Source: Marsupella aquatica (lineage: Eukaryota; Plantae; Marchantiophyta). From it: a stretch of DNA of 64,000 bases. Where the stretch lies: NCBI GenBank assembly GCA_973895155.1, contig OZ316896.1, positions 15,376,576 through 15,440,575 of the forward strand. The letters run 5' to 3'. The translations under genes and the position numbers were made by a program. The first letter of the stretch is position 1, and every line of letters starts with the position of its first letter. Shown piece after piece: positions 1-61,893 of the stretch. The notes under the pieces were generated by a model. The model saw only the letters and a program-made list of their open reading frames with translations, did not search any database and had not been told where the DNA came from.

Positions 1-2055
1 CCTCTCCAAAGATGCCGAGCGCAAGTTCCCCACACATCTCACCATACTCCAAGGCTCTATTCTTAGCGTAGGTGGAGTAAGTAGAAGTGATCGGCATCGC
101 CCATCGTGGCCTCTGCTCCCAAGCCGTCCTGCGGATCTCTTCAATCATGGCTAGAGGTTTGCTTCCTTTTTCGGCTAGCCGCCTGATGTCCTCCGGCCAA
201 TCTCCTCCTGGTAAATCCTTTTCCTTAGCCAGGGCGGCCTCTTCCTCCTGCTTGATTCGCTCCTGAAATTCCTGCACCGTCTGTTTTATGTCGTCGAAGC
301 TCGGGGGAGCAACATCTGGTGGGGGAGACTCAGGGCTACTCTGCTGGTTGGGGTCCCCTCGCACTACCCTTGGAAGTGTGGGGACAAACCGGCCACAGGT
401 CCTTACTCCTGGAACGTGATGGTCCGACCCATAGCCGGAATTATCATGGCTGCAGTCCTCCACTGCCTCCTCTACCTCTTGGACTTTTTTTTTTCCGGCT
501 TCTCCCTCTCCTCTTCGTCGGTAGGAGCTTCAGGCAATTCTGCCTCAGATTCGGAGCTTGAGGTTCCCACGTACATTCGAACACCTGGCTTGGATTCCGG
601 CCTGATTCTCTCCTTGTCTCCAGCAAAGGGGTTTTCTCTTGTGAGCCGGTGTAGGCCTACCTCTGTAGTAGTGTCCTGCATTGTTGCCGTTGCCGTTGTT
701 GTTGCCGATGCCGATTTCTTTTCTTTCTCCAGTAGTTTCAGCAGACTCTGCATGCCTGGTTGCTGCATCGGCAAGTCTTCCTTCCTGGGCCTAAACACCT
801 GCTCGATCGTAGGACTAACAGGTGGTTGAGGCTTCTCAGCCAACGGCCTCGGCGTTGGAGCTTCCTCGGGTGCCCTTACCTGCAGGGGAAGTACCGGGGC
901 AAAAGTCTGACCTCTGGCATACCGGCACAACAGCGGCATGTGATAGCCAAGCCGCGACACGCTCCCCATGCCGATTACCTGCTGCTCCTCCTTTAAGATC
1001 TTCTTCAATTGGTTGAGGAGGTACCCGTTGTAGTCCCGGCTTGGGTCTGGCCTTTCTGCCAGATAGACCTGTGCCTTGCCGATCTCTGCCCTCGGCAAGT
1101 TACAATGCATGGTCACCCGCAAGAAGTCGATCATCTCTCCTATGTGCGGGTTGGTGCAGGTGTTCCGGAAGAAGCCATTCTTTGTTGATGGCCCGAGGAA
1201 CGACCGGAACTCCTTGTCAGGCAAGGTCTTCCTGGTATCAACTTTGGTCTTATTGCCCATCGGCAAGCCAAACACTTCGGCAATCACCTTGGGAGTAAGA
1301 TAGAAATCCTTCCCATATATCCTCGTGCAATTGGTCTCGGGTTCCCATGACCCCACGAATTCTAATAGGTCTGACTCCGGTACCTCCGGCTTCAGCCATG
1401 GTAATCTTACAAAGGCCTCCAAGCCGGATCCGGCCATGAAGCCTTGGTACTTCTTGGTCTGCATGGCCGTAAAGCATGCATCCTCCTCCCGTGCAAAATG
1501 TAGTTGCACCTCCACCTGTAGGGTCGCCGCCCAGCCCTTCCAGGTGTCATCCCTGGTTGGAATGGCCTTGATGGGATCGACCTCCTCCTCTTCGGCTTCT
1601 CCCTGCCTCCTGCTCTGCTGCTCGGCTGGCTTCTTTGGTGCCGCCGACCTTGTTCTTTTTGCCGGGGTGGCTTCATCGTTGACGGCTCCCTTCCTCTTCA
1701 TCTCTGCTGCCGTGGAGGTCTCTCCTAGCACCGTTGCCCGGGTCCACCTTTCCGTGCTACCCTTTAATTCCCAGTGTATGTCATTGCAGTTCTTGATGGC
1801 CTCTCGGATGCCGACGACGCTGTCTTTGCAAAACAGAAGATCGTCGAGTTGATTGGAAGTAGGCGTCCACAGGAACTCGTCCTTGATGAGTTCGCCTCCT
1901 AAGAAAGCCGTCTTCTGCAGCTCCCACAATCGAGCGAGCTCCTGCCGTTCTCGAGCTGCCCTTTCTGACTCCTCGTCCTCGTAAGTCTTGATGTACTCAG
2001 TTGCCCGTTCGAACAGGCATCCCCAGAAATGTGCCGCTTGATTGACGTTGCTCAT
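1..2055 (-). pseudogene. 3'-LTR copy of the LTR-borne accessory ORF (frameshifted near 484-494)
   Basis: ORF 472..2055 is nearly identical to 12928-11360. An expanded T run (ggactttttttttttcc vs ggatttcc) shifts the frame. Confidence 0.85.
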
Positions 2056-2429
2056 ACCCTCCTTAGGTTGATCGTCGGTATCTACTCTCTCCCCGAGTGC
2101 TTGCCTAAGCAGCTGACAGTAGTTGGCCTCCCGTAGTCGTCTGCCTAGTTCGTGCTCGCAAATGAGCCACCATCTCCTGCAAGCGCTCCTTACCCCTCTC
2201 CTCTGCCGGTCCTTCTTCCCGTTGATCCTTCCTAGCCGCCGACGCTTAACGCGCCCTAACCCTAATCGGGTTTTTCACCCTCAGCCTTACCTCCGGCCTC
2301 TGCCCGGGTTCCATGGTTGCCCCTAATTGTTTATATTTTCCTTGTTTTGTCACTATACTAAGGTGTTCCTAGGGTGCCTTCCTGCTTTACCCACTTAACC
2401 GGCCGAGTGATTCCTGTCTAGGCATCACA
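1..2429 (-). repeat. 3' LTR (partial)
   Basis: Matches 10882-13301 with about 19 differences counted by eye (~99% identity). Identity stops exactly at ...ggcatcaca, which is the TG start on the minus strand. Confidence 0.95.
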
Positions 2430-5400
2430 TAGCTCCCCACTTAATTGTGAAGCGTCCTCGCGAACAACTTCATCTTCGTCCATATAGTATTTCTTGAGGC
2501 GGTCATAATGGATGCGAACTGGATATACCTCTCTCGTAATGTTGGCCAATTGCACGGAGCCATTGGGGAACATCATGGTTACTCTAAAGGGTCCTAACCA
2601 GCGAGTGTAAAGCTTTCCTGGAAACCTACTATACCTACTGTCATAAAGTAGCACAAGATCACCGGTATGAATACTAACTACTTTTAACCTTTTATCATAC
2701 TGCTGCTTCATGATATTCTGTCTATATTCTACTCTCTCGGCTGAAATCATTCTCGCTTCCTCTAAAGCTTCTAACCTATATTCTCGCTCCTTTAGGCTCT
2801 CCTCCGCTGAGGCTCTTTCCTCAATTGTAACTTGAAATGTCGGTATCTCAAGTTGCATGGGTACCAGGGCTTCTTGTCCAAAGGTTAAGAAGAAGGGTGT
2901 ATGACCGGTAGTGGATTTATAGGCCAGATTGTAAGCAAAAACAGCAGCAAACAATTTATCATCCCAATCGAGTTTGTTCTGAGCTACTGTCTTGTTCAAT
3001 ATCTTTCCTATGATTCTGTTTGCTCGTTCTGTCAACCCGTTTGCCTTTGGATGGTAGGGAGTAGTAGGCCTATGTTTAACTAAATACTGCTCATTTAAAC
3101 GACTAATTATATCATTCAAAAAATGGGTTCCTCTATCACTAACTAATTCTAGGGGTGCTCCATACCTGGTGAAGATCTGCTCATACATGAATCTAGCCGT
3201 AGTAATTGCATCATCCTTCGTTGTTGGTCTGGCCTCTACCCATTTAGTTGCATAATCCGTAGCCAGGATTATGTACTTGTTCCGTCGAGGGTGGGTCAGT
3301 GGTTTCAGAGGTCCAATGTAATCAATACCCCACTTCTCGAATGGTGCCAGAGATAGAATAGGGTGCAGTGGATGCCTGGTGGACGCCCTTGGTCCTCCCG
3401 CTCGTTGACAAGGATCGCATTGTTTGATAAACTGATAGACATCTTTGTGCAAGGTGGGCCACCAGTAACCGGCATTTAATATCTTCTTAGACGTGGTTAC
3501 TGGGGCAAAATGTCCTCCGGCCTCCTCTCCATGCATGGCCCGTAGGACTCGTTTTACCTCTCTCTTCTCCAAACACCTTTGAATCGTGCCGTTGATTCCA
3601 TGCTTGTGCAGTATGCCTTTAATGCACTGATACTGTCTGACCTTCCGCACAAAGACTGCGGCTTGCTCTCGGCTTAATCCTGGCTGTAATCTGGAAGTGC
3701 TGAGAAATTGTAAAATCTCAGGGTACCATGTACCAGCTATTTCCACAACGAATAGCTCCTCGTCGGGGAATCGATCATCGATGCAATCCGTGGCAGGTTT
3801 ACCTGTGATCCTTGAAAAGAAGTCGGCATTGGCATGTAACTTTCCTGGCTTGATCCTCAGCTCATAGTCAAACTCCTGTAATAGCAAAATCCATCTTGCT
3901 ACTCTGCCTGTAAGGTCCGGCTTATTGACTAGGTACTTCAAACTTTCATGATCAGTATGAAAGATTACCTTGTACCCTAGTAAATAATGCCTAAACTTTT
4001 TACAAGAATAAATGACTCCTAATGCTTCTCTTTCCGTGGTAGAGTAGTTCCGTTCGGCATCGGCAAGCTGACGGCTTGCGAAGTATATGGGATGGTCCCT
4101 TCCTTTCTCATCCAACTGACTTAGTACTGAGCCAATACAGAAGCCTGAGACATCTACAAAAACATGAAAATCTTTGTTCCAGTCCGGTGCTATCATGACT
4201 GGGGCCTCTACTAACATCTGCTTCAATTCTACCACCGCTGTGACTCGTTCGGGTGTGGGTTCGAAGTCTGCTCCTGCCTTGAGCATATTGGTTAATGGTA
4301 AAGCTAGCTTGGCAAAATCCTTGATGAACCGGCGATAGTAACCAATGCATCCCAAGAAGGATCTTACATCCTTTATGTTCTTAGGTTGCATGATATCTAG
4401 CCATACTGCTAGCTTACCTTTGTCAATCTCAATGCCCTTCCTTGATACCTTGTGACCTAGTAGCACCCCCTCGGTTACTGCAAAAAAACATTTATCTGGG
4501 TGTAACTTGAGACCCACCTCCCTACATCTCATGAAGGTTTTCCTGAGGTATTTAGCATGTTTGGATGCCTTCCCGAATACTGCAAAGTCATCAATGAAGA
4601 TTTCCATGAACTTTCTCAAGTAATCATGAAAAATGTTCACCATTAATCGTTGGAATATAGCTGGTGCGTTGCAGAGTCCAAACGGCATACGATTGAAGAC
4701 ATAGATCCCCCATTCCGTGATGAAGGCCGTCTTGATTTGGTCTTCCTGCCGAATCCTGATTTGGTTATAACCAGAGTATCCATCCATGAATGAATATAGT
4801 TCATGACTGGCTACCATGTCTAGTACCATATCAGTAAACGGTAAAGGAAAATGGTCTTTTAATGTTGCTTCATTCAGCTTCCTGTAATCCTGACAAACCC
4901 GGATCTTGGGTTTACCATCGGGTCCAGCTTTCTTGGGAACTATCACAATTGGAGACACCCAGTCTGAATGCAGGACTGGAGTGATGAATCCAGCTTCCAC
5001 TAGTTTGTCGATTTCTGTTTTGACCAGCAGGGAATACTTCGGGTTCATCCTTCGAATTGGTTGTCGAAATGATTTGGCTCCTAACATGAGATCAATTCGA
5101 TGTTCCCCTAGTGTTGGATCTACGCCCTTTAGATCTTGGTGACTCCATGCAAACACATCCTGAAATTCAATCAATAAGTCACTGATCTCTTTCTCGAGCT
5201 CAGGTGCTAGGTTTCTCCCTAAGTTCAGTTCTCTTCCCTCTCCTAAGTCGAGCTTCCGATATTGCCGTGCTTGGATCATATTAATCTGCTTCTTCAAATT
5301 CGGGTCCAGTTCGGCTTCCAGTCTCTCTAATCTCATACCTCCATAAACTGGGATCTCGGCTGGACTAGCCGAGTCGGTCCCTTCCTTGGTGTCCATAGAT

Positions 5401-5684
5401 TGTCCCCTTACCGGTCTATTCGGTTTTGAATTAGTGGTCGGCTCCCCTTCCTGCCTTGGCTCTGGATCGTGTCTGTCCATCTCATCCACCTCTTGCTCCT
5501 GAGAGTTAGGCCGCTGTGCTTTCTCGGCTTCTAATAGGGCCTCAATTTGTTCTGCCCTCGTAATCGGCTTGTATGCCGATCCCTTGGTATTTAATTCCTT
5601 GCCGATGATCGATGGCGTTGTGGACCCCGTCAGCTCTGCCACAACGCCTGCAGAAAATCCACTGTCCCTGCTACTGCTCCCCAC
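2418..5684 (-). CDS. pol: pol: reverse transcriptase, RNase H, integrase (probably expressed by -1 frameshift from gag-pro)
   Basis: Intact 1088-aa ORF. RT FIDD; RNase H DVS...YFASRQL...TDH; integrase H..H..C..C zinc finger, WGIDY, SDRG, E motifs and WLGPF. The stop codon lies just inside the 3' LTR. Confidence 0.95.
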   Translation of the reverse strand: MGSSSRDSGFSAGVVAELTGSTTPSIIGKELNTKGSAYKPITRAEQIEALLEAEKAQRPNSQEQEVDEMDRHDPEPRQEGEPTTNSKPNRPVRGQSMDTKEGTDSASPAEIPVYGGMRLERLEAELDPNLKKQINMIQARQYRKLDLGEGRELNLGRNLAPELEKEISDLLIEFQDVFAWSHQDLKGVDPTLGEHRIDLMLGAKSFRQPIRRMNPKYSLLVKTEIDKLVEAGFITPVLHSDWVSPIVIVPKKAGPDGKPKIRVCQDYRKLNEATLKDHFPLPFTDMVLDMVASHELYSFMDGYSGYNQIRIRQEDQIKTAFITEWGIYVFNRMPFGLCNAPAIFQRLMVNIFHDYLRKFMEIFIDDFAVFGKASKHAKYLRKTFMRCREVGLKLHPDKCFFAVTEGVLLGHKVSRKGIEIDKGKLAVWLDIMQPKNIKDVRSFLGCIGYYRRFIKDFAKLALPLTNMLKAGADFEPTPERVTAVVELKQMLVEAPVMIAPDWNKDFHVFVDVSGFCIGSVLSQLDEKGRDHPIYFASRQLADAERNYSTTEREALGVIYSCKKFRHYLLGYKVIFHTDHESLKYLVNKPDLTGRVARWILLLQEFDYELRIKPGKLHANADFFSRITGKPATDCIDDRFPDEELFVVEIAGTWYPEILQFLSTSRLQPGLSREQAAVFVRKVRQYQCIKGILHKHGINGTIQRCLEKREVKRVLRAMHGEEAGGHFAPVTTSKKILNAGYWWPTLHKDVYQFIKQCDPCQRAGGPRASTRHPLHPILSLAPFEKWGIDYIGPLKPLTHPRRNKYIILATDYATKWVEARPTTKDDAITTARFMYEQIFTRYGAPLELVSDRGTHFLNDIISRLNEQYLVKHRPTTPYHPKANGLTERANRIIGKILNKTVAQNKLDWDDKLFAAVFAYNLAYKSTTGHTPFFLTFGQEALVPMQLEIPTFQVTIEERASAEESLKEREYRLEALEEARMISAERVEYRQNIMKQQYDKRLKVVSIHTGDLVLLYDSRYSRFPGKLYTRWLGPFRVTMMFPNGSVQLANITREVYPVRIHYDRLKKYYMDEDEVVREDASQLSGELCDA
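2430..2444 (-). other. polypurine tract
   Basis: Minus strand AAGTGGGGAGCTA lies immediately before the TGTGATG LTR start. Confidence 0.75.
5614..5660 (-). promoter_or_regulatory. putative -1 programmed ribosomal frameshift signal
   Basis: G_GAT_TTT in gag phase (5660-5654), a 5-nt spacer, then a perfect 10-bp stem GGCGTTGTGG/CCACAACGCC with a 15-nt loop. The -1 frame is the pol ORF. Confidence 0.75.
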
Positions 5685-8584
5685 TTAGCCGTCTCATCCA
5701 ATTGGTCTACATCCTTAACTTCCTCCGGAATTGCAGCTAAAAAGGTGGATTCTATTGTAAAGCAGTCCTCGACCTCTTCGTCTTCTTCTTCCAAGTCACC
5801 TTCCATTGGTTCTTGCCATAATCCGCTGGGGGGTACCTCTGGTCCAAAGACACCTTCTTCGGTTAGGTTAGTGAAGCATTCTAACCAACGTACTTCATCG
5901 GCTGACTCCAGTCCACTATCGTACCCATCTACTTCCCTTATGCTTTTCCTACGGTCATCCTTAGTGTCCCAGGATACCGTGATAGAGGGGGTCCCGAAAG
6001 TGAACTGCTTTTTACCCCAATCTTCTATTACCTCGGCTAGGTACAGCCATGGCCTACCAATCAATAGCCGGAATGACGTAGGATTTACCGGCTTCATTAC
6101 TACATAGTTAATGCTAAAGAAGATACCTCCTATCTCTGTCTTGATGCCGGTTAACACTCCCGTCGGAATGACCTGATATCCATTGGCCATGTTCAACACT
6201 CTTCCAGTCATCTCCGGTGTTAGACCCCACCCTTTTGCTGTTGAATCAATCATAATACATACCCCTGATCCTCCATCGATGGGTACCCGTAGTAATAATT
6301 CTCCTTGAATCATTAATGGTAATGCTGGGGCTCCTTGATCTTCTTCTATCATTAGTACGTCGGATCTGGTTGCTACCTTGGGTAATCTCGGCTTGCCGAG
6401 AATAGCCTTCCTTAATTGCTTCCGGAAGTACGGGCTATTTTTCAATAGTTGACCTACTGTTGCCGAGACTCTAGATTCTAGTACATCTTTAGCCAGGTCA
6501 TAGGGAACAATCGGCTTCTCTTCTGGTGGTGTTTCCGTCTTGGATTCGGCCAGTTTTGCCACGCTAGTCTCCACAGCTGTTGGGTCTTCCGAAGCAAACA
6601 ATGCTTTTGCTCGTTTTACATCCTTGGCAATGGCTTCGGTATTCTCCAGGGTTTCTAATTCTCTTAGTTGTTCCTTAACACTAGCCGTAACAGAGGGGTA
6701 GAACAACTTAGGATGATCTCGATTGAAGTCGCTATCTTGTGAAGGATTGGTTTCACTGGTGGGCTCATGGCTTACCTGTATTGCCGGAGCCCTCCCTTCT
6801 CCTTCTGTTGATGTTGACGAAGAGTCGATCCTTTCCTCCGTAACCTTCCCTTTATTTTTGGCCAGCCCATCCCACCTTTCCTTCCTTCTGGTAGATCGAG
6901 TAGAGATCCGGTAGCAATCATGATCTAAATCCTCCTCTGAGAAGGTTGATAGGGCTTCGGCCTCATCATCAGATGGTACGAACTCTGCCTTGGCATCCTC
7001 TTGCCATCCTAGTTCGATGTGGTTGATTTGAACTCCTCCGGGGGTAGTACCTGGCGGTAAGATCTTGATCGGCAAAAGCTTATGATTTGCGGCCAGGCCT
7101 GCCAACCAAGTAGGACATTGCCCTAGCATATGACCTTCCTGTCGGCATCCCATACATAGCTGAGCTGGTTGTCCATCACCCTGTTTGCGTGCATTCGGGC
7201 ATTCTCTAGCAAAATGGCCAGGTTGACCACAATTATAGCACGCCGCAAATCTTTGCACATTCGGCCTAGGAGGTACTGACGGGTTCTGAATAATCCTAGG
7301 ATACATCTCTCCTGGATTGTTCCTTAACCCTGACCACAGAGATGCAGGTCTGTTGGATAGGTCTCGTGCTCCAGTCTCACTGATGCCGAAAACACTATCA
7401 GCGGCATCTCCCAAAAAGTACTCTACTTCTCCCTGACATGGTCTGATCTCGGCCACATGCCGAACATGATTAGTATTAAGCTTAGGACAAGCATCTTTAT
7501 GGTGTCCGGTTTTATAACATAAGGCACACCATACAGAGCTATCCTCCTGTACTACCTTCTTCTTTGGTTTTACCTCTGCAATGATAGCCTTAAGTTGCTC
7601 GGTAAGGGCTACGATGTTATCTGGTGGCTTAGCCTCCATCTTGACTTTCGTCTTCCCTCTCCTTCTGCCCTTCCTTTTCCTAGTTTTTTCTTCTTCAGAA
7701 CTAGAAGATGACTCACTCTTGCTACTCCCACTATCCGAGCTTGACTTATCACTTCTAGACTTCTTGGAATGTTTCTTCTTCTTATCTTTTTTCTTATGGG
7801 GTGATCCCTCCTCTGATGAGGAACTCTCAGACTTAAGTTGTTTCTTCCGGCTTGTGATATCTGCATTAATGTATAATTGAATATCCTTAATTGCTTCGGC
7901 TAAGGTCTCCGGGTTCTCCTTCCTAATTGCAAAACTCATCTTCTGTGGCAAAGCATTCACCAACCATTGAAGTTGCATACCTTCAGATGCATTGGTCTTT
8001 GTACGTCTTACCAGTTTCTGAAAGCGTTGCAAGAACTTCCTGAAGGATTTGTTCTCCTTGAACCGAAGTTGTCCCAACTTCAGCACTGCTAGTTCTAAAG
8101 TTCCAATGGGTCGAAACTCCTTAACAAAGAGTGTTTTGAAGATATCCCAGATGGCTTGATCTTCCACATCTAATGCTCTGTACCAAGGCCTAGCCTCACC
8201 CTTGAACAGGCCGGGAAGAATCTGCATCTTGATGGCCGATTCTCCATTTGCTGCAGCGGTTCCCTCGAAATCATCCAACCATTCGTCCGGATCCTCATCT
8301 CCTCTCCCATGAAATGCCTTGTAATGTATGCGTGACCGTTGGCTCAATCTGGTCCCTGGCCTCTCGTCTGGCCGTGCCTCTGGTTCCCCCATGTCAGTTG
8401 GAGACTCACTTCTCCTTACCGACTCTTCTTCTGGTATGTCTTCTTCGACGCCACTTCCAGTTTCGGAGCTACCAGCTCTTTCTGCCCCTCTCAGTCGCTG
8501 TGTATCATGCCACCCGGCGAGCTGCTGCAGTCGAGCTCTCTCCCGTTGAATCACTCTTTCTTCCCTCGGCGTAAGGTCAGTCAT
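5630..8584 (-). CDS. gag: gag-aspartic protease polyprotein
   Basis: 984 aa. Retrotransposon capsid-like region (FHGRGDEDPDEWL...ARPWY), three CCHC knuckles (CALC..H..C, CYNC..H..C, CMGC..H..C), protease IDGGSG and LLIGRPWL. Confidence 0.92.
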   Translation of the reverse strand: MTDLTPREERVIQRERARLQQLAGWHDTQRLRGAERAGSSETGSGVEEDIPEEESVRRSESPTDMGEPEARPDERPGTRLSQRSRIHYKAFHGRGDEDPDEWLDDFEGTAAANGESAIKMQILPGLFKGEARPWYRALDVEDQAIWDIFKTLFVKEFRPIGTLELAVLKLGQLRFKENKSFRKFLQRFQKLVRRTKTNASEGMQLQWLVNALPQKMSFAIRKENPETLAEAIKDIQLYINADITSRKKQLKSESSSSEEGSPHKKKDKKKKHSKKSRSDKSSSDSGSSKSESSSSSEEEKTRKRKGRRRGKTKVKMEAKPPDNIVALTEQLKAIIAEVKPKKKVVQEDSSVWCALCYKTGHHKDACPKLNTNHVRHVAEIRPCQGEVEYFLGDAADSVFGISETGARDLSNRPASLWSGLRNNPGEMYPRIIQNPSVPPRPNVQRFAACYNCGQPGHFARECPNARKQGDGQPAQLCMGCRQEGHMLGQCPTWLAGLAANHKLLPIKILPPGTTPGGVQINHIELGWQEDAKAEFVPSDDEAEALSTFSEEDLDHDCYRISTRSTRRKERWDGLAKNKGKVTEERIDSSSTSTEGEGRAPAIQVSHEPTSETNPSQDSDFNRDHPKLFYPSVTASVKEQLRELETLENTEAIAKDVKRAKALFASEDPTAVETSVAKLAESKTETPPEEKPIVPYDLAKDVLESRVSATVGQLLKNSPYFRKQLRKAILGKPRLPKVATRSDVLMIEEDQGAPALPLMIQGELLLRVPIDGGSGVCIMIDSTAKGWGLTPEMTGRVLNMANGYQVIPTGVLTGIKTEIGGIFFSINYVVMKPVNPTSFRLLIGRPWLYLAEVIEDWGKKQFTFGTPSITVSWDTKDDRRKSIREVDGYDSGLESADEVRWLECFTNLTEEGVFGPEVPPSGLWQEPMEGDLEEEDEEVEDCFTIESTFLAAIPEEVKDVDQLDETAKWGAVAGTVDFLQALWQS

Positions 8585-8631
8585 TACCTACGCTTCCGTT
8601 CTAACTTCATATCTCACGGCTTAAGAAATGC

Positions 8632-8649
8632 CCCCTCCATCTAGCGCCA
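8632..8649 (-). other. primer binding site
   Basis: TGGCGCTAGATGGAGGG lies 4 nt after the LTR-terminal CA. The cognate tRNA was not determined. Confidence 0.8.
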
Positions 8650-8653
8650 AAAA

Positions 8654-11600
8654 TGTGGTGCGTCCCATGGCTCCCTAAACCCAAGAAACCCCCCAGCTCA
8701 AGCCGATTCCCGCAGGTTTCGTGCTTGGCGAGGCCGTTTCCGCGGCTTAGCGGCATGGGACGCTGCTAACCTTCTACTACTACTATTAACATTTTACACA
8801 CATATACTGGACAGATCCTTCATCGGGTCATGAGATACGTAGTCGGCCTAATATAGGCCTTCCCCTGTCTTCCCCTGTCTTCCCCTCCGTCTTGTTAGGT
8901 ATGTTTGGATTCCGCCGCCGGAATGATCCCCAATAGGCTTGGTTAAGCCGCTAAGACCTCTCTCAGCTCGACACATCCAACTCTCACTCCCCTGCTTACT
9001 TTCCTTCCTTCTGTTGATGTGGGCACTCTTCACACAAGTTAATGCGACACACAAATAGCAAAATGACTCATTCTGACTGAGTCATACCATGCACTTGCCA
9101 TACAAACAGTACATCTCATACACAAGTTCTGCGAACTAAGCCGTGAGGCCAACTCTATTCAGCTCTTAGGCATGAGGAAACATGAATATACACAAGGGTC
9201 ACTGTATGACTAACCGAGAGCTTCTCGTACTACTTGATCCCAGCCCGGCTGGTGCAAACTAAAAACTTGCTAAAGAAGAGGCCCTGAGCTCCCCGCTGCC
9301 CAGGTACTTATCCTGGTAGTGGATCCGCCATTCTTTGCATCGTAAGCCTAATCTACTTAACAGTAATCTACTTGCCCGAATCTACCTATGTACAGCAAGG
9401 CAGGAGCACAAGTGTTGCTCCTACCAGTGGGACCGCAATCCCACTAAGCTAAGTGTCAGGGCCGCTCCTGGTTCTGATCCTAATCCTAAACGTGGAGATC
9501 CGTGCCCGCCCTGCCCACTCACGCCTCCTCCCTCCACGTCCGCCCTCCCTAAAAGGAACGGCGCCCTTGCACCGTCACGACACCGGTGGTGGATCCTCAA
9601 TGGACGCCCCCAACACTTCCTCCTCAGCCACTGCCGTTGGCCCGCCTACTGACAGATTACCTGCCCTTGACCGAGTCAACTCTCCATCGGCCTGACTGGG
9701 TCCACCTTCGGCTTCAGCCTCGACAACTCCCACGGCTTCGGCTTCAGCCACCCCCACGGCTTCGGCCTCAGCCAACCCCACGGCTTCGGCTTCCCCTTCC
9801 CCTAGGGTAGTTGGATCCTTAGCCGTGACCCTGTCTGGGGTCGGTGCTGGGTCTACCTCCTTGATCACCACGGCCTGTGAAGTCGTATTACTCCTTGACC
9901 CTGCAGGTTTCCGCTTCTTCTTCGTTGGTGGCTCGGCAGCTGGTCCCTTCCCCTTCCCACTTACCTCCGGCACTGGTGCAGGTGGGGCGGCTTGTCCTTC
10001 GGCAATTACCACCCCTGGTAACTGGTTTGTCCCAACAGGAGATGGACCTGCTGCAGCTAAGCATTTAAATACTGCGGCTTGTTTCTTCAGCCGCTCTGTT
10101 TGGTTGTCGGCCCGCCGCTGTAGGTTCTCCATCTTCCTCGTGATTTCCTCCAACTCCTCTTGGGTTTCATCCAGGTCCTTACGTGCCCCCTCCAGCTCGT
10201 TTTTGGCCTCCTCCTGCTCCCTGTGGGCTTCCTCCAATTCCTTCTTCAAGGTAGCCTTCTCCTCCTAGGTTGCTCTTAGCTCCTTGTCGAGCTCTGCAAT
10301 GATGACAGACTCCATCTGGTTCATCTTGGCGTAAGTCTGTTCGAGCATCTCGTCCTTCTCCCTTAGGTCGGCCTTGAAGCTGGCCGTCAGGGACGCAAGC
10401 TCCTGCTGCAGCGCCATAATCCCTTGATAGGATTTCCCTAACTCGACTTCCTTCTGCTCAAGGGCTCCGCGGATTTTCTCGAGCTCCCCTTTCAACGCCC
10501 ATTCCTTTCTTTGGGTCTCCGCCATGGCCCGGCTGTTGGCTGTTATGTGGGCCTCCTCTGTATTCTTCAGCTCTTGCTTCCACTTTTCCCTTTCTTTGAT
10601 CGTGTCGGCCAACTCTTCCTGCGTCTGAGTCAGTTTATCCTTGATATTCTGATTATCAGCCTACGCGGCGTCCAACTGCCCCTGCATGATGTTGAGCTCA
10701 TGTCGTTTAATCCGTAGTTCATCTTGGGCTTTCTTGGCCGCCCTTAGATCTTCAATCTCGGCTCCCATCCTCCTAAGCCGCCGAATGACCTCGTCCTTCT
10801 TGCTTCTCTCTAAAGCCACCGCTTCTTCTAATTGGTGCTTCTCCAACTGCTCCCTATGGAAAAAGGGTCCTACCTCCAACTCCTCTCCAAAGATGCCGAG
10901 CGCAAGTTCCCCACACATCTCACCATACTCCATGGCTCTATTCTTAGCGTAGGTGGAGTAAGTAGAAGTGATCGGCATCGCCCATCGTGGCCTCTGCTTC
11001 CAAGCCGTCCTGCGGATCTCTTCAATCGTGGCTAGAGGTTTGCTTCCTTTTTCGGCTAGCCGCCTGATGTCCTCCGGCCAATCTCCTCCTAGTAAATCCT
11101 TTTCCTTAGCCAGGGCGGCCTCTTCCTCCTGCTTGATTCGCTCCTGAAATTCCTGCACCGTCTGTTTTATGCCGTCGAAGCTCGGGGGAGCAACATCTGG
11201 TGGGGGAGACTCAGGGCTACTCTGCTGGTTGGGGTCCCCTCGCACTACCCTTGGAAGTGTGGGGACAAACCGGCCACAGGTCCTTACTCCTGGAACGTGA
11301 TGGTCCGACCCATAGCCGGAATTATCATGGCTGCAGTCCTCCACTGCCTCCTCTACCTCTTGGATTTCCGGCTTCTCCCTCTCCTCTTCCTCGGTAGGAG
11401 CTTCAGGCAATTCTGCCTCAGATTCGGAGCTTGAGGTTCCCACGTACATTCGAACACCTGGCTTGGATTCCGGCCTGATTCTCTCCTTGTCTCCAGCAAA
11501 GGGGTTTTCTCTTGTGAGCCGGTGTAGGCCTACCTCTGTAGTAGTGTCCTGCATTGTTGCCGTTGCCGTTGTCGTTGCCGATGCCGATTTCTTTTCTTTC

Positions 11601-13301
11601 TCCAGTAGTTTCAGCAGACTCTGCATGCCTGGTTGCTGCATCGGCAAGTCTTCCTTCCTGGGCCTAAACACCTGCTCGATCGTAGGACTAACAGGTGGTT
11701 GAGGCTTCTCAGCCAACGGCCTCGGCGTTGGAGCTTCCTCGGGTGCCCTTACCTGCAGGGGAAGTACCGGGGCAAAAGTCTGACCTCTGGCATACCGGCA
11801 CAACAGCGGCATGTGATAGCCAAGCCGCGACACGCTCCCCATGCCGATTACCTGCTGCTCCTCCTTTAAGATCTTCTTCAATTGGTTGAGGAGGTACCCG
11901 TTGTAGTCCCGGCTTGGGTCTGGCCTTTCTGCCAGATAGACCTGTGCCTTGCCGATCTCTGCCCTCGGCAAGTTACAATGCATGGTCACCCGCAAGAAGT
12001 CGATCATCTCTCCTATGTGCGGGTTGGTGCAGGTGTTCCGGAAGAAGCCATTCTTCGTTGATGGCCCGGGGAACGACCGGAACTCCTTGTCAGGCAAGGT
12101 CTTCCTGGTATCAACTTTGGTCTTATTGCCCATCGGCAAGCCAAACACTTCGGCAATCACCTTGGGAGTAAGATAGAAATCCTTCCCATATATCCTCGTG
12201 CAATTGGTCTCGGGTTCCCATGACCCCACGAATTCTAATAGGTCTGACTCCGGTACCTCCGGCTTCAGCCATGGTAATCTTACAAAGGCCTCCAAGCCGG
12301 ATCCGGCCATGAAGCCTTGGTACTTCTTGGTCTGCATGGCCGTAAAGCATGCATCCTCCTCCCGTGCAAAATGTAGTTGCACCTCCACCGGTAGGGTTGC
12401 CGCCCAGCCCTTCCAGGTGTCATCCCTGGTTGGAATGGCCTTGATGGGATCGACCTCCTCCTCTTCGGCTTCTCCCTGCCTCCTGCTCTGCTGCTCGGCT
12501 GGCTTCTTTGGTGCCGCCAACCTCGTTCTTTTTGCCGGGGTGGCTTCATCGTTGACGGCTCCCTTCCTCTTCATCTCTGCTGCCGTGGAGGTTTCTCCTA
12601 GCACCGTTGCCTGGGTCCACCTTTCCGTGCTACCCTTTAATTCCCAGTGTATGTCGTTGCAGTTCTTGATGGCCTCTCGGATGCCGACGACGCTGTCTTT
12701 GCAAAACAGAAGATCGTCGAGTTGATTGGAAGTAGGCGTCCACAGGAACTCGTCCTTGATGAGTTCGCCTCCTAAGAAAGCCGTCTTCTGCAGCTCCCAC
12801 AATCGAGCGAGCTCCTGCCGTTCTCGAGCTGCCCTTTCTGACTCCTCGTCCTCGTAAGTCTTGATGTACTCAGTTGCCCGTTCGAACAGGCATCCCCAGA
12901 AATGTGTCGCTTGATTGACGTTGCTCATACCCTCCTTAGGTTGATCGTCGGTATCTACTCTCTCCCCGAGTGCTTGCCTAAGCAGCTGACAGTAGTTGGC
13001 CTCCCGTAGTCGTCTGCCTAGTTCGTGCTCGCAAATGAGCCACCATCTCCTGCAAGCGCTCCTTACCCCTCTCCTCTGCCGGTCCTTCTTCCCGTTGATC
13101 CTTCCTAGCCGCCGACGCTTAACGCGCCCTAACCCTAATCGGGTTTTCACCCTCAGCCTTACCTCCGGCCTCTGCCCGGGTTCCATGGTTGCCCCTAATT
13201 GTTTATATTTTCCTTGTTTTGTCACTATACTAAGGTGTTCCTAGGGTGCCTTCCTGCTTTACCCACTTAACCGGCCGAGTGATTCCTGTCTAGGCATCAC
13301 A
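8654..13301 (-). repeat. 5' LTR, 4648 bp
   Basis: TG...CA termini on the minus strand, adjacent PBS, near identity with 1-2429, and LINE sequence resuming at 13302. Confidence 0.9.
9575..12928 (-). pseudogene. LTR-encoded accessory ORF, ~1117 codons with two in-frame TAG stops (plant transposon-protein-like domain, low-complexity linker, coiled coil)
   Basis: ORFs 10661..13225, 10265..10612 and 9575..10249 share one frame, separated by TAG at 10661-3 and 10265-7. Motif LLEFVGSW...IYGKDFYLTPKVIAEVFGLP. E/K/L-rich heptads in the C-terminal half and AEAEAVGV repeats near 9710-9795. Confidence 0.8.
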
Positions 13302-14528
13302 CCCCTCTTTTGACATTAAAAATGAGACATTCACTAAGCTGCCGGTATGGATAGAGCTTCCTTTTCGGGATCTTGCATTGGAAGGATGCAGGAGGCAGAT
13401 TGCTTGCTCATTGGGCCCTCTGCTTTACTACATCCAGGGAGATCAGTTTAGCTCCTTCCCCCATGATAGAGCGTGCATTCTCTAGGACACGGATCGGGAG
13501 GTCCCTGCTAGTGTTAGAATTCGAATTAGGGATGATATCGTGATATGGCAACCAGTGACATTTCGCAACATTCCATATCACTGTTATAAATGTAATAAGA
13601 AGGGTCACCTGGCGCATAATTGCGGAGAATCAGGGGCATATGAGCCGCCTGTGGTGGTTGAAGCAGAGATTCCAGATGAGAAGGATGATGAACGCCATTC
13701 AGAAGCAGATGCGGAAGAGGCTCAACGGGCTTTGGATAACGCCAAGGCCAGGGCGGAATTCAGTGCGGCCAGGGCATTGCAGGTGGAAAACCAGCAGAGG
13801 AAGGCTGTGGAGGTAGATATGGAGCAGATCGAGAGGATGGTCTCTGAGAGTAGCAGGCACAAAAACCGGGCTGAGGGTTCAGGCTTAATGACAGGTGAGC
13901 CTGTTCATCTGAATGCGGGGATGCCCTTGGCAGTGGTGGCTAGAAATGAGTTGGCTCCGGTGGAGGTGATTCTCCCATTGGCGTGCAGGAGCGAGTATGG
14001 AAGGAAGGAGACTGTGCTAGATGCCAAGGCTTTGATTTTTGAGCCGCCCCCTTTTCCTGCGGAGCAAGGGAACTCTGGACTGCTACAGGCCTCTGACTTT
14101 AATCGGGGGACTCTGGCAAAGAAGCTTTCTCGTATCATGGTGATTCGGACGCTGAGATGTCTGAATATGAGACTTACATTTCAAACAGTAAACTCAAGGC
14201 CAGAGCACGGAAGCAGGAGCTGAGAACTCCTCCCACTGTTACCAAAGACAAACTGAAAGGTGATTCCAAGAAACAACGTTCCCTAAGCTTCTCACGAGGA
14301 TGCTTGTCTGATGCAGGTGGCGGTGACAGGTCCTCACGGGGACACAAAGGGCTGGCAGGTACCGAGCGATCCGATGGAGAGGAGATAGGTAAGGTTGTGG
14401 GAGAGGGGTCCTCTGGTGTAAACAGGGGTGGTAACCGGCTTAAGTTGATACCTTTTGCTGCGGTCTCAGGCAACCTGAGAATTAGCTCGGATGTGGAGAT
14501 GTCTCCGGGGGGACGCGCTCGAATTTAA
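13302..14528 (+). pseudogene. LINE ORF1 remnant (zf-CCHC)
   Basis: PVWIELP and HCYKCNKKGHLAHNC are typical of plant L1 ORF1; contains a stop and a frameshift. Confidence 0.75.
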
Positions 14529-14599
14529 CTCAACTCGGAGGCAGAGATGGAGGCCGCTGCTATGGTGATTCAAATTTAGGCTAGATGGGCGAATTGCTG

Positions 14600-21192: not shown

Positions 21193-21213
21193 TACAGTAT
21201 TGCTGCAGATTGT

Positions 21214-26423: not shown

Positions 26424-27135
26424 TACAGAGGTTTACACCTCCACTACGTACATACCACTTCATTTGCTTTTTCTTGGCACTTGTGAATGTGATTGGACTT
26501 TTTCTATGCATGTTGGTTGCTAGCAGCTTGCACATATGCCTTGCCGGCGACTTGTATGTTTTTGATACACTATGGCTACGATACTATATGTCACGACAGC
26601 TGTCATGCCGAGGGACAGTGCCTCTTATGCACATCGGCATGTCCCTCGCATGCCCGCTAGGTATGTAGTTAGGGCTAGTGTACTACTTGAGTTAGCAACA
26701 TGTTCTTATAGCAAATGCCAGGCGTTCTTGAAGCAAACACGCTTGTTAGTGTGACGCCAGGACTTTTTTTACTTAGGGCATGTCTTTCTTTGTGAGTTTT
26801 CAGTTCTTCTTGAATCGCTGTTGACAGAGCTCAGACAGTGCTCGTCGGTTCCGTACACGGGATTCACACAGTGATTCGTTAGATGCTCCCGGCCGATCTT
26901 GGCATCCCGCCGATTTTCGATTCAATTTCAGTACGATTGTTTCTCTTACGCCTTTTAATATACAGAGGTTTACACCTCCACTATGTACATACCACTTCAT
27001 TTGCTTTTTCTTGGCACTTGTGAATGTGATTGGACTTTTTCTATGCATGTTGGTTGCTAGCAGCTTGCACATATGCCTTGTCGGCGACTTGTATGTTTTT
27101 GATACACTATGGCTACGATACTATATGTCACGACA
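26423..27135 (+). repeat. candidate 3' LTR (537 bp) followed by a tandem partial copy of its first 176 bp
   Basis: 26423-26598 is nearly identical to 26960-27135. Confidence 0.65.
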
Positions 27136-27136
27136 A

Positions 27137-27548
27137 GGGGAGGCAGGCACAGGGAGGGAGGCAAGGCAAGGTGTGACTAAACAGACTGCCAAACGGTCAC
27201 GGGACAACATTGGCTCTCGGGCCGGATGTGTGACGACCAGGGTTTTGGACGCCTGCACCCTTTTGGAAGATGTTCTTTTTGGGCCTTAACCGGGCAGCCC
27301 GTATGGGCACTGGGAGAGTTCTCACATGACGGCAGGGGTTATTAGGGGGTCTCACTTATTTGCCCGTGTGCCCATAAGGGCTGCCCAATTAAGGCCCAAA
27401 ACGGACGTCCGCCAAAAGGGTGCGGGCATCCAAAACCCTGGTCATCACACATCCAGCCCGGGAGCCAACGTTATCCCGTGACCGTTTGGCACCCAGTTTA
27501 GTCGCAATTTGCCTTGCCTCCCTCGCTGCTCCTCCCTCTCCTCTCCCG
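27137..27548. mobile_element. MITE-like foldback element
   Basis: ~175-bp imperfect inverted arms (27137-27314 and 27363-27548) flank a ~50-bp spacer, e.g. tgccaaacggtcacggga / tcccgtgaccgtttggca. No TSD recognised. Confidence 0.7.
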
Positions 27549-28296
27549 AGCTTGATTTATAGGTATCATATGTGTTTAGCCGCCGGAATGCACCTCAAGT
27601 CGAAAGCTGGATCGACCCCGGCTAAGGACTTCTAAGCCTTTGTACTGTCCACCTCCGATCCAGATCTGATAATACGGGAAGGTAACCTGGGCCTAAAACC
27701 ACTATCCACAGCCTACACCCCGTGCACGGCTCGTATAGCGTGTCCGGCCCAACATTCTCTATCCACATACAAGATGTACAATTGTCTCAACATTCACAAC
27801 ATACACGCTTGATTTACACAAAGGAAATGGTGGGGAATAGACTTTTCTTCAGGAGCCGTTATACACATATACACGGTTGACTCGACTTCTTCTGAATACT
27901 CAGGCCAAAGACAAAGAGGTGTACACTACAACGGAGCCTGGCTCCGCACTCGCCCAATGAGCTTAGTCATACCTTCATTCCTTGGGACTTCTATTCAAGA
28001 AGGCCGGGACTCCCAGCACATCCTACGGGCACCCGGTTTTGAACCTAAAATCCCCCCCGCTGCCTCTACCGGGGGTGCACTAAATACTAACTAAGAGCCA
28101 TGGCCAGGAATGGTCACGCACTCAAATTCTAACCTATGCTAATCCTAGCTAAACGTCAGGCTGCTAAAACGGCTTGTCGTTACCCTAAGATACTACACTA
28201 AAAGGTGGTCGACGCCGCTCTAACTACTTTTGGCGCTTGTTGGTAGTGTCCTACTTCTACTGCTAAACCTAAGCTACTCCAAACTATCGGTGCCAC

Positions 28297-28716
28297 TTAA
28301 TGTCTGGCTTGTTTATTAGATCCGCCCGAGTGAGACTTGGATTGGCCGTCCCACTGCCTCCTCAGCCGGTCGACGTCCTGCTTGAGGATTTGGACCTGGT
28401 CCAAGAGAGACTCATTCTCCCTCTTTGTCGTGTCCGTCTCCTCTGTGGCCTCCTGACATGCCTCTTCCAACTGCTGACCGTCGCTCGTCAACTTGGCCAC
28501 CAGTTGGTTCTGGTCAATGGCCTCGTGCTGAAGACTTGCCACCTCCATCTTCAGTGCATCAACCTCGACGGCATCCCTTTGAGCTTGAACCTCGGCCTCC
28601 TCCACATCCTTCTGCCAGATTACAACTTGTTCCTTCAGGCTATCAATCTGGCCCCGGAGCTGTGCAATTTCAGCATCTTTCCCGGCTTCGGCCTGCTCGA
28701 CAATCGCGGAATTCAA
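28297..28716 (-). pseudogene. C-terminal coiled coil of the same decayed LTR-borne ORF
   Basis: QIDSLKEQVVIWQKD...QQLEEACQEA...ENESLLDQVQ...SHSGGSNKQARH matches the end of the 882-aa ORF. Confidence 0.9.
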
Positions 28717-30599
28717 CTACCTTAACACTTAGCTCCAGCGTCGCTGACTCCAACGCCGAGCTTCCTTATGGTCCAGGCCCGGATAGGCCATCTGGGAAGG
28801 ACTTAGCATGGGGAGACTTGTGAGCGACGAGACGTGTCGCTAGTGAAGGCAAGGAGCCAAATTGGTGACACACACTGAGGACTTGGGCTAGCTAAGAGCT
28901 GGTCGGGTCAAGGGGAAATGGGCCGGGCTCAAGGACGACCGTCCGGACCTCCGGATGGACTTTGAGTTCTGAGAGCTTGAGGGTGAGCTCCTCTTGGGCC
29001 CAAGGCCCATGGAGTTGATGCCATGGGCAACGGACGCTTGGGGCGCAAGTTATGGTCCAATCCAAGTTGGGCCGATCGGGGGCCCCAAGCGGCAATGAGA
29101 CCTGAGGGCCTAGGCATGAGCACTGGGTTGGCCTGATCGCGATAGGCTAAGGCACTCCGCTTGCGGATGCCTAACGAGAAAGTTATGAGCGTTGCCAGTT
29201 GATGGCGCGCCCATTATGCGCGATAGGATCCGGGTTGGGGGCCAAATGTTTAGGGACCAAAGCTGGTCCAAGGGTGGCAGGTCTCCAGAAACATATATGA
29301 GGGGAGTGGTGTCTCCGGGGGCTAAGGGCGAACCAAAGTCGTGAGCCGCGGTGGTCGTGACACTAAGGGAAACCGCCAAACAAAAATGACTATATCTTCC
29401 CAACGGGAAGTCTGTTGGAGGACTTCTTGGGTGCGTTGGAAAGCTCTTGAGGAGGGCCCTCCTAAGCTCAGCTGGGTCTGGGGCACCATGGGTTCTCGGG
29501 GTTTGCGGGTGTTAACTCGCCCGCTTGCCAAATCCTGCCGAATAGCAGCCAAGCCGTGTTCAGTCTCCCAAGGGAGCTCGCGTTGGGGAGGCAAGGCCAA
29601 GTAGGTGTGGAGGTGGAGTTCCAAGAGTGCTCGGTCCCTAGACCGTCAATGAGGCGAATCAGGAGTTGCTTGCTAGAGTCGGGGTCATTCTGGTCCCGGC
29701 GTGTTGGGACAAGCTTGGGACAAGCTTTAGGACAAGCTACGCTATTGGGCCATGAGCATGTCCTGGGGTTAGGGTGGTCAGTTGGTGATGGATAGGTACG
29801 AGGGACAACCCAGGCCGCGCCCAAGGAAGGAGTTGTTCTGGACGAACAATGGGCTTGGGTTCAATCTGGTTCTGACTTATGGCATCGGGAGGACCTATCG
29901 CTGACCTATTTAGCAACGTTTGTTGAGCTTGAGTTAGGATGCTAGACTTGGTGAGTTCTAGATCCTAAAGGGTTACTTACCAAGGTGCTTGGTTGCTTGT
30001 GCAGAAAGTGAGGACCGTTGAGTAGCGGTTGTGTAGGAGAGCAAGTGCGGCTTCGTATGGGAGGGGCCGCTGGTGGTGCAAGGGGCACCAGGGTGCTTGC
30101 TCGAGGTATTTCGTGGAGGCGTTTGGGCACCAGGGGCACTTAGGCATGAGTGCTGGGATTGGTGAGGGCGCTGGGTGGCAAGGTCCACCACTTCGGCCAA
30201 GGCTAGCCTGGCCTCAGTGTCGGTGACCTGGGCGAGAGTGTGACGCCAATGACATGGTCCTTATTTTGTAATCTGATTAAGTAGGTTGCTGTATGCAAGG
30301 AGTAGCTATTGATATTGGATAACAATTAGCAAGATGGCAAGAATAAGGGCAATCATGGCGTTAAGAGTTGGGAAATAAAAGCTATGTCGCGGGTGGTCGA
30401 CGATCATATCTCTTTCAATATGTCACCAAATCCGGATCTGTAAAGAGCATTGGAAAGATCTGGTCAAGGCGAGTAAAATCGATATAAAAAACTCGAGAAA
30501 CGGAGGTGTATTAAGAAAGATACGGCCTGATTAGTGTGACGGGTTAACTTGTGGCCGGAATTAGCGGATTCGGCTTCAGTTTCGGGTTAACCCAAGCTC

Positions 30600-30780
30600 G
30601 ACCACGGCTTAGCTTATGTGAGCACGGCTTCAGCTTAGCTCAGGTCAGCACGACTTCAGCTTAGCTTAGGTAAGAACGGCTTCAGCTTAGCTCAGGTCAG
30701 CACGGCTTCAACTTAGCTCAGGTCAACACGGCTTCAGCTTAGCTCAGGTCAGCGCGGCCTCAGGTTAGCATAGGTAAGCT
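30600..30780 (+). repeat. 26-bp tandem repeat, about 6-7 copies, in LTR U3
   Basis: Units of gcacggcttcagcttagctcaggtca. Confidence 0.85.
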
Positions 30781-32739
30781 CGGATTCGGGCTCAACTTAG
30801 GCTAGGTTAGCGGATAGCGGATAGCGGGTAGCGGCCTAACCCGAGACCACGGGTTAGCTCTACTCGGGTTAGATAGGATAGCTAGGTTAACCAAACTCGG
30901 GTTAGCTATGTAACTCGGGTTAGCGCAGCAGTGAGTACCCCCTCTCGGTTGCGGGGGCATAACTCTCTGTGTATTTGACCAAATCGGCTATAATTGACCT
31001 CGTTGGAAAGAGGAGCTCAAGCCGCTTCCAACGCTGCTATACACGCAGAAAATGGTTAAATAGAGAAATCGGGAGAGGAGGCGCAAGCTCGCGAAAACCA
31101 TGGAGGAGGGCCGAATCCGAAGTACATAGCCAATTCGAGATAAAAATAAAGTTACGAGTTAGGGTTCAGTAGTTAGAGATAGTGGCGGCTCTGTTAGGGC
31201 TGGGATGGGGCTCCAACAACGTAGTATCCACCCATTTGGGCTCAGTATGAGAGTATATAGAGCAGCCCCCGGTAGAGGCAAGGGGGGGGGGACTTCAGTT
31301 GTGTGATCTCACTTAGACTGAGCAGCGGGGAGGAGCTCTGTGCAAGCAAGGCTGGACTTGGACGCTGCGTGTTGGGGAGAGCTTGGTTGTGCTATTACTC
31401 AAGGAGTAATCAGCCAAGCTTCACAGCAACGGGTTGCTAGGTTTGCGAGCTGGATTTTGGCTCTTTCTAGTGGGCAGCACAACTAGGTTCTTTTCCCCCG
31501 ATACAGAGCCTTGGTGATAGGTGATGTATTGGTGATTGTAAACTGTGGGGAGGATTTCAATTCGATTTGCGGTGGGCACATTAGGGAGGCTGAGGTACTA
31601 ATTAAGGGGCAGCAGGAGGAGCATTTACAGTTCAGTCTGGCAAGGCTACGTGATCCATGGGGAGTCCCGGCCTTTGTCTGGTGGAGAGCACTAAGGGATC
31701 TATGGCCAGAGCTGAGCTTGCAGGGCAAGCGTGAGGCCGGGCCTCATTGCAGTCTGGGGTAGATCGCCGTTAGGCCTGGTACCAACTTTGAAGTCGAGTC
31801 AACTATGCATGCGTAACTTGACGTTCTGAATTTGGAGGTGTGAGATCTGTATGTGCCCCCAAGAATGAAGTGTAGTGAAGGAGGTTGAGTTCAGGATTGA
31901 GTTTGCAAGGCAAGTACGGGATTGGTTCGAGTCCAATCTGCCGTCGCAATCTGGAGTGAGCCGGGCTCAGGTTCAGGATTGAGCTTACATGGCAAGCACG
32001 GGGCTTGCAGGGCAAGCACATCACAATCTGGAGGAGACAGCCTTCGGCCCTAGTGTTCGGATCAAGTGTTCTCAGTGAACTATTGTGCACATCTTTGAAT
32101 CTAATTGAGTTTTCCTCTCAGGCCTCATTTCTCTCATGGATGTGTGTGTGTGTGAGGCAATCTGAGTGTATGATGGAACTAGCAGCGCCACTGAGAGGTG
32201 TACCGGGTGCATTGAAGCGGGCTGGGTGAGGACTGTCATAGCTCTGATTGTTGAGAGTGGAATGGCAGAGTGGTGGGGCAATGGCTTAGAAGTCCCTAAG
32301 TCGGGAATCAGTCAGGAGTCACTGGTTTATGGGTACATTCCGGCGGCGGAATAGAAACATACCTATGACAGTAAGCATATGTGTGACGCCGCCGGTACGG
32401 CGGTTAATGAGTGATTCAGTCTAACTGCGCTCGGCACGCGCGTTAGGTGGGTCTTAGGCCGCTATTATTAGCATAACGACAGTATTTAGGTAATCATTAG
32501 GGGTAGGACATCATTAGGCAATAAGGGGGACTTCAGGTTCGGGCTGGCGGCGGGTCGCTATTCGCACACCCGGGTTACGAGCGTGGAGGGGCCCCTCCCT
32601 CGGGTCCGTATAACGAACTTAAGGAAGCGGCCACTGACGCACGCTGACTCAGACCGGCGGAGTGGCCGGTACACCACAAGCGTGAGCGGTTCAACCTATG
32701 GGCGTCGAGGAGACGTCGGGGATCGACAAGCCCTCAAAG

Positions 32740-32746
32740 TATAAAA
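32740..32746 (+). promoter_or_regulatory. putative TATA box for the LTR-borne ORF
   Basis: TATAAAAGG lies ~100 bp upstream of the ATG and is conserved in the minus-strand relative (39006-39012). Confidence 0.55.
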
Positions 32747-32847
32747 GGGGAGCCAACCCTTTGTAGTACACCAATCCATCAGTCCGCGCGCCAGCTTCGA
32801 CCCCAGCTCTCTCGTTCTCTCTAGGTTGCCACTACTATCTCCTCTGA

Positions 32848-35496: not shown

Positions 35497-35711
35497 CGGC
35501 GGAGTAGGAATAGATTAGGATTAGGATTGGCTTAGTCAGGCTCTTGGGACAGGCACCTGCCTTAGGTACAGCAGCGCTGCCCTGCTGTCCAGCCTGCGTA
35601 GATTAGGATCTTCTAATAAGACACAGCCGTTTTCCGGCCTGACTGTCAGCTTAGTTAGGACCTTAGTCAGCGAATCTTCGGTGAGAGGACACCTCGTTCC
35701 TCGGCTCTTAG

Positions 35712-35750
35712 TATTTAGTGCACCCCTCGGTAGAGGCAAGGGGGGGGGTT
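35712..35750 (+). promoter_or_regulatory. putative LTR core promoter (TATA-like plus GGTAGAGGCA-G run)
   Basis: The same arrangement occurs at 31254-31292 (+) and 28052-28086 (-). Confidence 0.45.
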
Positions 35751-38900: not shown

Positions 38901-39373
38901 ACAGGTACCGGCAATGGATGACTAAGGAGAAACTGGGCAAGCTGGGGTCAAAGTTGGTGCAAGGAGTGAATTGCCGATGCAACACAAGAGAATATATGGC
39001 GTGCCTTTTATACCCTAAGGGCTCGTCGGCTGGTCGGCCCCTCCTCTTTTCTGACAGGCCGATTCTTTCACGCTTGCAATGTACGGACCACTCCGCAGGT
39101 CTGGATCAGGGCGTGTCAGAGAGCCGCCCCCTCGATCTGTTATACGGACCCAAGGGAGACGTTCATACCACGCTCGTAACTCGGCGGTACGGGTGGCGCT
39201 CCGCTGTCAACCTGAGCGTAAATGCTTCTTATTGACTAATGATGTCCTAGTCATGATTACTACCTACTTTAGTGTCGTTATGCTAATAACTACGGACTAC
39301 TAAGTCCGTAGCGCGCGTGCTAAGCACGGATGAGGTCGGATTACTCATTACCCGCCGTGCTGGCGGCGTCACA

Positions 39374-61860: not shown

Positions 61861-61893
<33 letters not shown>

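Follow-up and report, generated by a model that had tools for sequence, protein, structure and literature searches.

The locus described here raises the question of whether a long terminal repeat (LTR) of a plant retrotransposon can house a protein-coding gene. It lies in a 64,000-nucleotide stretch of the liverwort Marsupella aquatica genome (assembly GCA_973895155.1, contig OZ316896.1, positions 15,376,576 to 15,440,575, forward strand), termed here the window, and belongs to a retrotransposon termed element A. A first-pass annotation had proposed a giant LTR of 4.65 kb enclosing, between its TG...CA termini, a sense open reading frame (ORF) of about 1100 codons. The LTR bounds, with the ORF inside them, can be given with high confidence, and the ORF is a real accessory gene under purifying selection. 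The parts of element A and its flank are:

8654..13301, minus strand: 5′ LTR, 4,648 bp, with TG...CA termini, next to the primer binding site (PBS); 98.9% match to the copy adjacent to the polypurine tract (PPT)
1..2429, minus strand: 3′ LTR, cut by the window edge, with the first two thirds of a second ORF copy
8632..8649, minus strand: PBS-like 18-mer, 4 nt from the CA end of the LTR
5630..8587, minus strand: gag-protease ORF (Pfam Retrotrans_gag, zf-CCHC)
2418..5684, minus strand: pol ORF with reverse transcriptase (RT), RNase H and integrase (Pfam)
2430..2464, minus strand: PPT module, directly preceding the 3′ LTR
13302..13306, plus strand: CCCCT, the expected half of the target-site duplication (TSD), in a flank that is ORF1 of an L1 element

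The LTR is read as 4,648 bp because the repeat start TGTGATG (13301) is followed by an unbroken run to CACCACA (8654) and then by the PBS-like 18-mer. At 13301 it adjoins unrelated L1 ORF1 sequence, and a second TGTGATG start lies at 2429, directly after the polypurine tract. Self-BLAST gave a single long direct repeat (1-2429 versus 10882-13301, 98.9% identity) and no internal repeat shorter than the LTR within 8654-13301. The termini, the PBS and the PPT-adjacent copy thus bear out the proposed LTR with its ORF. The claim that the ORF is duplicated in the other LTR stands for the first two thirds, present in 1-2429; the 3′ third is beyond the window, which takes in 2,429 bp of the 3′ LTR and leaves its left end about 2.2 kb outside. 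The two copies differ by 17 substitutions, an 8-bp indel and a 1-bp indel; a divergence of 0.7% corresponds to 0.3-1.2 million years at assumed rates.

Element A has an internal region of 6,224 bp and a total length of about 15.5 kb. Its gag-PR-RT-RH-INT order between PBS and PPT is that of Ty3/gypsy elements, and Pfam gave no match to an extra RNase H or a chromodomain in its pol, which has a single RNase H. The PBS is presumably of the tRNA-Asn type. The closest named pol relatives are from liverworts, with Calypogeia fissa at 69-71% over RT-RH; a quick tree (31 rows) joins it to element A at 100. Element A, a non-chromovirus Ty3/gypsy retrotransposon, likely comes from a liverwort. The gag-protease and pol ORFs overlap by 55 nt in different frames (5630-5684, minus strand), which may reflect a programmed frameshift or decay. 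The L1 long interspersed nuclear element, into whose ORF1 element A is inserted, occupies 13307-18514 (plus strand) and encodes a zinc knuckle, endonuclease, RT and zf-RVT.

The LTR itself divides as follows:

9575..13186, minus strand: LTR-borne sense ORF, 1,203 codons from ATG 13186, with two in-frame TAGs in this copy
12449..12916, minus strand: N-terminal conserved region, residues ~91-246, covered by 3 of 23 phmmer hits, with no family assigned
11768..12439, minus strand: core globular domain, residues 250-473, of predicted VANC21-like fold
10067..10819, minus strand: predicted coiled coil, residues ~790-1040, 67% E/K/Q/R/L/A, no proline
10661..10663, minus strand: in-frame TAG 1, a sense codon in 99.7%, 97.6% and 74% of depth (X1, X2, X3)
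10265..10267, minus strand: in-frame TAG 2, a sense codon in 98.6%, 98.6% and 100% of depth (X1, X2, X3)
8654..9574, minus strand: non-coding LTR tail, 920 nt, with a hairpin-rich motif at ~8896-8990 that is common to the related LTRs B, C and D

The ORF is a single frame from ATG 13186 to TGA 9575. Its start is uncertain, since the 1-bp indel of the 3′ LTR copy lies in codons 1-15 and the phmmer homologues set in close to the second Met; the 8-bp insertion is also near the start of that copy. From the second Met (ATG 12928) the ORF has 1,117 codons, in agreement with the size first proposed. Three listed ORFs had been joined into one frame across two TAGs; the frame is indeed continuous, but the TAGs (codons 842 and 974) are decay of this copy and not design. 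Both are private to it, since most of the family depth has sense codons at the two sites; run X6 also has a sense codon at the first site in 100% of depth and no row for the second. Programmed read-through of the TAGs is ruled out by the same sense codons. In the tail, a PPT-like 8-mer at 9294, also found inside the ORF, might be a relic.

The window holds further LTRs of this kind, with homologous ORFs at 32.8-35.5 kb and 36.7-38.9 kb (tblastn), nested in the order B in D in C:

32382..36396, plus strand: solo LTR B, 4,015 bp, TSD ATATG on both sides, 882-codon ORF at 32848-35496, TATA box at 32740
27126..39373, minus strand: LTR C (lower end tentative), B-related, with a TATA box at 39012 and an ORF split by frameshifts and a nested insertion of ~8 kb
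30239-36690, plus strand: solo LTR D, TSD GAGAG, ~2.4 kb minus nested B, with the common 3′ motif
8896-8990 (minus), 36150-36245 (plus), 27555-27650 (minus) and 32275-32372 (plus): multi-hairpin motif near the 3′ end of the four diverged LTRs A, B, C and D

The LTR B ORF shows 33% identity to that of element A over 158 residues (E 6e-18), and homology to the LTR-borne ORF was not found in LTR D. The hairpin motif is without a family because an Rfam scan of 1-41000 gave one chance-level match only; it is a candidate packaging, dimerisation or 3′-end signal.

Selection on the ORF is seen among variants of the family and between LTRs B and C. Among variant rows in 10180-10880 (40 shown of 70), two are the stop sites, 22 are synonymous, 16 nonsynonymous and none nonsense, whereas chance would give a synonymous share of 20% (all changes) or 35% (transitions; p 4e-7 and 0.003). 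At further distinct ORF sites, 13 of 20 are synonymous (p 0.004). The dN/dS between the ORFs of LTRs B and C is 0.18, 0.09, 0.39 and 0.15 over 445, 121, 141 and 135 codons, in blocks that cross frameshifts and with dS near saturation. The 17 differences between the two LTRs of element A, 11 nonsynonymous and six synonymous, point the other way, and are expected for change after insertion. The observed/expected CpG ratio of the ORF (0.68) exceeds those of gag-pol (0.60-0.63) and the L1 (0.56), a gap too small and uncontrolled to use.

An integrase-alignment scan provided 80 related loci, of which nine have a PPT module like that of element A. Eight of these (L003-L008, L012, L015) show pol, the PPT module, TG and, 0.5-0.85 kb on, the core of a homologous sense ORF; four were in the ORF profile and the other four matched it at E 7e-51 to 6e-4. 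In L004 and L007, the start reads TGTGGGAG, and its inverse forms the end preceding the PBS. The suspicion that tandem or nested elements, or a mis-assembly, only mimic an LTR here, or that the ORF is neutral cargo, is very improbable and largely refuted. The 3′ LTR end and its TSD do lie beyond the window, and none of the fetched contigs spans a complete ORF-bearing LTR. Against this stand the lack of any shorter repeat inside 8654-13301, the TSD of solo LTR B and the order conserved in eight loci, and neutral cargo is countered by the purifying selection.

The ninth module locus, L002, has the homologous ORF between pol and the PPT module and an LTR of ~1 kb. At L001 and L017 the ORF also follows pol, in sequence too short for its placement. 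Profile comparison matches the two sets of ORFs with each other (probability 97.6, E 3e-12). In an integrase FastTree of 25 rows, in which L014-L018 were too short or not included, element A and the seven module loci tested group together (0.897), with L001, L002, L010 and Riccia proteins outside. The simplest reading of these sequences is that an extra ORF on the 3′ side was transferred into the LTR once. The gene would have begun as an Athila-type sense extra ORF between pol and PPT and moved into the LTR once, in the clade ancestor, through either a switch of PPT or an insertion just behind where the LTR starts. Reverse transcription would then place a copy at both element ends, and LTR-LTR recombination would leave the gene in solo LTRs, which could keep supplying the protein in trans. 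Two more distant relatives (L009:2211-2780 and L011:2204-5098) likewise carry a long, coiled-coil-bearing sense ORF after pol and a PPT-like tract, with no profile match at threshold.

Parts of the LTR were found in 15 runs, six of them with half or more of its words and none recorded as RNA. Contig depth over the element A interior is ~300 (X1) and ~80 (X2) times the flank depth. For the stretch of LTR that is single in the window it is 3.4x (X1) and 3.7x (X2) the internal depth; according to a tool warning, such summed depth gives no copy number. Three X2 contigs join foreign sequence exactly at 8654. The LTR depth ratio and these joints lend indirect support to the portion of the 3′ LTR that lies beyond the window. 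The depth over flank and the LTR excess over internal sequence suggest a high-copy family with two LTRs per element plus solo LTRs.

Where in the LTR does the gene lie? It is probably in U3, with a promoter of its own near the left end of the LTR; we infer this position rather than establish it, since the ORF has TATA-like boxes upstream of it. Rather less likely is a location in R/U5, downstream of a single promoter, where the ORF would open the genomic RNA as its first cistron, in the manner of Ogre ORF1 or Retrosat2 ORF0; this is a matter of position only and compatible with any function. The TATA boxes of LTRs B and C (~360 nt in), the TATAAA 95 nt into LTR A and the lack of one in the 3′ tail of A tell against U3. 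In addition, the LTR starts of A and L002 match, and therefore the gene is downstream of the ancestral start. An R/U5 gene would, however, require strong-stop DNA of ~4 kb or an R of >3 kb; the sister element with its gene 3′ of pol disfavours it, and a TATA match upstream of the ORF is present in only three of the eight module loci. Coding sequence within or overlapping a retroviral LTR (U3) occurs in MMTV sag and HIV nef, as the first-pass annotation noted. These are unrelated, far shorter and from animal retroviruses, and the U3 position of the present gene is itself inferential.

The LTR protein is composed of the N-terminal region, the core domain, a proline/acid-rich linker, the coiled coil and a low-complexity tail, and has basic motifs like nuclear localization signals. 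Among ten homologues looked up, the four that are named are all from Calypogeia fissa. The model of the unbroken core domain (residues 250-473, 224 residues) matches VANC21 (PDB 9LNK/9LNJ) at 9% identity, and this predicted model has the VANC fold. A VANC21-like fold plus a coiled coil is thus predicted, and Pfam coiled-coil matches were below threshold. A comparison with Transposase_32, ATHILA and PMD had been suggested: ESM Atlas gave leads to the first two (similarity only 0.88-0.89), but no Pfam match to any of the three reached threshold for the ORF, the 23 phmmer hits or nine locus ORFs. The N-terminal region had no usable ESM Atlas match. PDB sequence searches and word-index protein searches gave no match (one of the latter covered only proteins of 1,303-3,720 residues and is uninformative), a viral fold library gave nothing at E 0.001, and a metagenome scan with the core domain produced 72 pattern matches, none confirmed. 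A single-sequence model of the LTR B domain was unusable (pLDDT 29). No VANC-type target-motif array was found, in an uncontrolled 7-mer count with at most three copies in non-coding DNA.

On this model, the LTR protein likely works as an oligomer with predicted binding to specific DNA sequences, and would hold the chromatin of its own element open. Of the functions first put forward, anti-silencing is the one most strengthened, by the VANC21 match, the ESM Atlas leads and the lack of a membrane segment, and an anti-silencing or chromatin-opening role is evenly poised. As to the whole explanation, comprising architecture, origin and a VANC-like anti-silencing role, we lean slightly towards it. 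Several points favour another nuclear role. A common fold proves no function, MAIN/MAIL1 were identified as silencing factors (PMC5418596), accessory transposable-element proteins are predicted to be host-contact hubs (PMC13547354), and several copies lie inside other LTRs (the X2 joints; B in D in C). Another nuclear job for the same architecture and fold, either tethering the integration complex to chromatin or damping transcription of its own or competing elements, is nevertheless unlikely, in that the sole solved match is a DNA-bound anti-silencing factor and strong selection in a high-copy family suits a self-serving role. A further rival is that the coiled coil underlies a factor for env-like particles or for movement between cells. 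In its favour are the long coiled coil itself and the gene position 3′ of pol in the sister element, a slot termed "env-like" and proposed to serve movement or chaperone functions (PMC7264820). Such a factor is improbable: an env-type role is disfavoured because the protein lacks a membrane segment (best 19-residue Kyte-Doolittle mean 1.07), the basic motifs are of nuclear type, and the fold match is to VANC21 and not to the viral library.

A putative anti-silencing protein of this fold has its nearest known counterpart in VANC21 of Arabidopsis VANDAL21, a Mutator-like DNA transposon (as described in PMC5735166); here the gene is in a gypsy LTR of a non-seed plant and its function is predicted. 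VANC has been described as dicot-specific (PMC13547354) and as encoded by VANDAL Mutator-like transposons, which element A is not. The extra ORFs of OTA elements (Athila PF03078, Transposase_32 PF20167, Tat/Ogre PMD-coiled-coil) have a similar domain-plus-coiled-coil layout and sense orientation 3′ of pol, in the accounts given in PMC4408406, PMC6317226 and PMC7264820. They sit in the internal region in the account of PMC7264820, whereas the element A gene is inside the LTR, persists in solo LTRs and has no Pfam match at threshold. Tat/Ogre differ further in an extra RNase H. Element A resembles Athila in lacking both this domain and a chromodomain. Athila is also listed with a 5-bp TSD, seen here in B and D only, and with a tRNA-Asp or -Asn PBS, the presumed type in element A. 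Its RT, RH and INT group with bryophyte sequences, apart from unlabelled angiosperm matches, in trees made without REXdb references. In Retrosat2, RIRE3 and RIRE8 the LTRs also exceed 3 kb and an additional ORF precedes gag, although, compared by description, this ORF0 is set apart from the LTR, upstream of gag-pol (PMC3485330). Phygy and Selgy are likewise non-chromoviruses of non-seed plants, with an internal region taken up by gag-pol, but their description in PMC6317226 gives a 4-bp TSD, tRNA-Trp/-Ala PBS, 4.4-10 kb and no listed extra ORF, in contrast to the ~15.5 kb of element A and the 5-bp TSDs of related LTRs. Plant LTRs up to about 5 kb are also noted there. Thus, the protein class and long LTRs are already known, and the placement of the gene inside the LTR appears to be new in plants; a literature search of incomplete coverage turned up neither a plant gypsy LTR enclosing a long ORF nor a retrotransposon with a VANC fold.

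The neighbourhood of LTRs B, C and D has further features. A decayed gypsy element at 20781-26380 (plus strand) encodes protease, a C5 DNA methyltransferase domain (PF00145, E 4.8e-7), RT, RNase H and integrase, with a PHD finger at the C terminus (E 6e-13). In front of it lie 412 bp of a D-type LTR start, and its RT is 35% identical to that of element A. LTRs B, C and D may belong to this distant, methyltransferase-bearing lineage, and if so, the LTR-borne gene would be present in two lineages. A 407-bp palindromic insert resembling a miniature inverted-repeat transposable element is found at 27136-27542 (arms 79%), and a 176-bp direct repeat at 26423-26598 and 26960-27135, each copy with an LTR-like terminus at its end. 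Farther along are a C/T-rich tandem array of 1.2 kb (42950-44170) and a 469-bp duplicate at 98% (41318-41786 and 47934-48402), an exon-like piece of a host gene (45000-64000) that resembles THO2. Dnmt3-carrying gypsy elements are described from the alga Klebsormidium (PMC5890265, in part), and the element at 20781-26380 would be a land-plant case.

Plant LTRs are usually regarded as non-coding, and an element reduced to a solo LTR as having ended its coding life; a selected LTR gene across a clade departs from that. If the fold reading is true, even leftover LTRs would probably equip the element to counter silencing by its host. Tentatively, a bryophyte gypsy clade may have moved a VANC-fold anti-silencing gene into its LTR, with two copies per insertion and each solo LTR a trans-acting anti-silencing gene; the VANC/PMD fold might then be an old retrotransposon counter-defence predating dicot VANC, and many "env-like" ORFs of Athila and Ogre might be anti-silencing too. 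Surveys of moss Tat-like elements saw no extra ORFs, as reported in part of PMC4408406, and ORFs hidden in LTRs would explain this if those elements also hide them there. The VANC21 match provides a testable hypothesis on the long-open function of gypsy extra ORFs, and would bear on the origin of VANC and PMD proteins, until now discussed for angiosperms.
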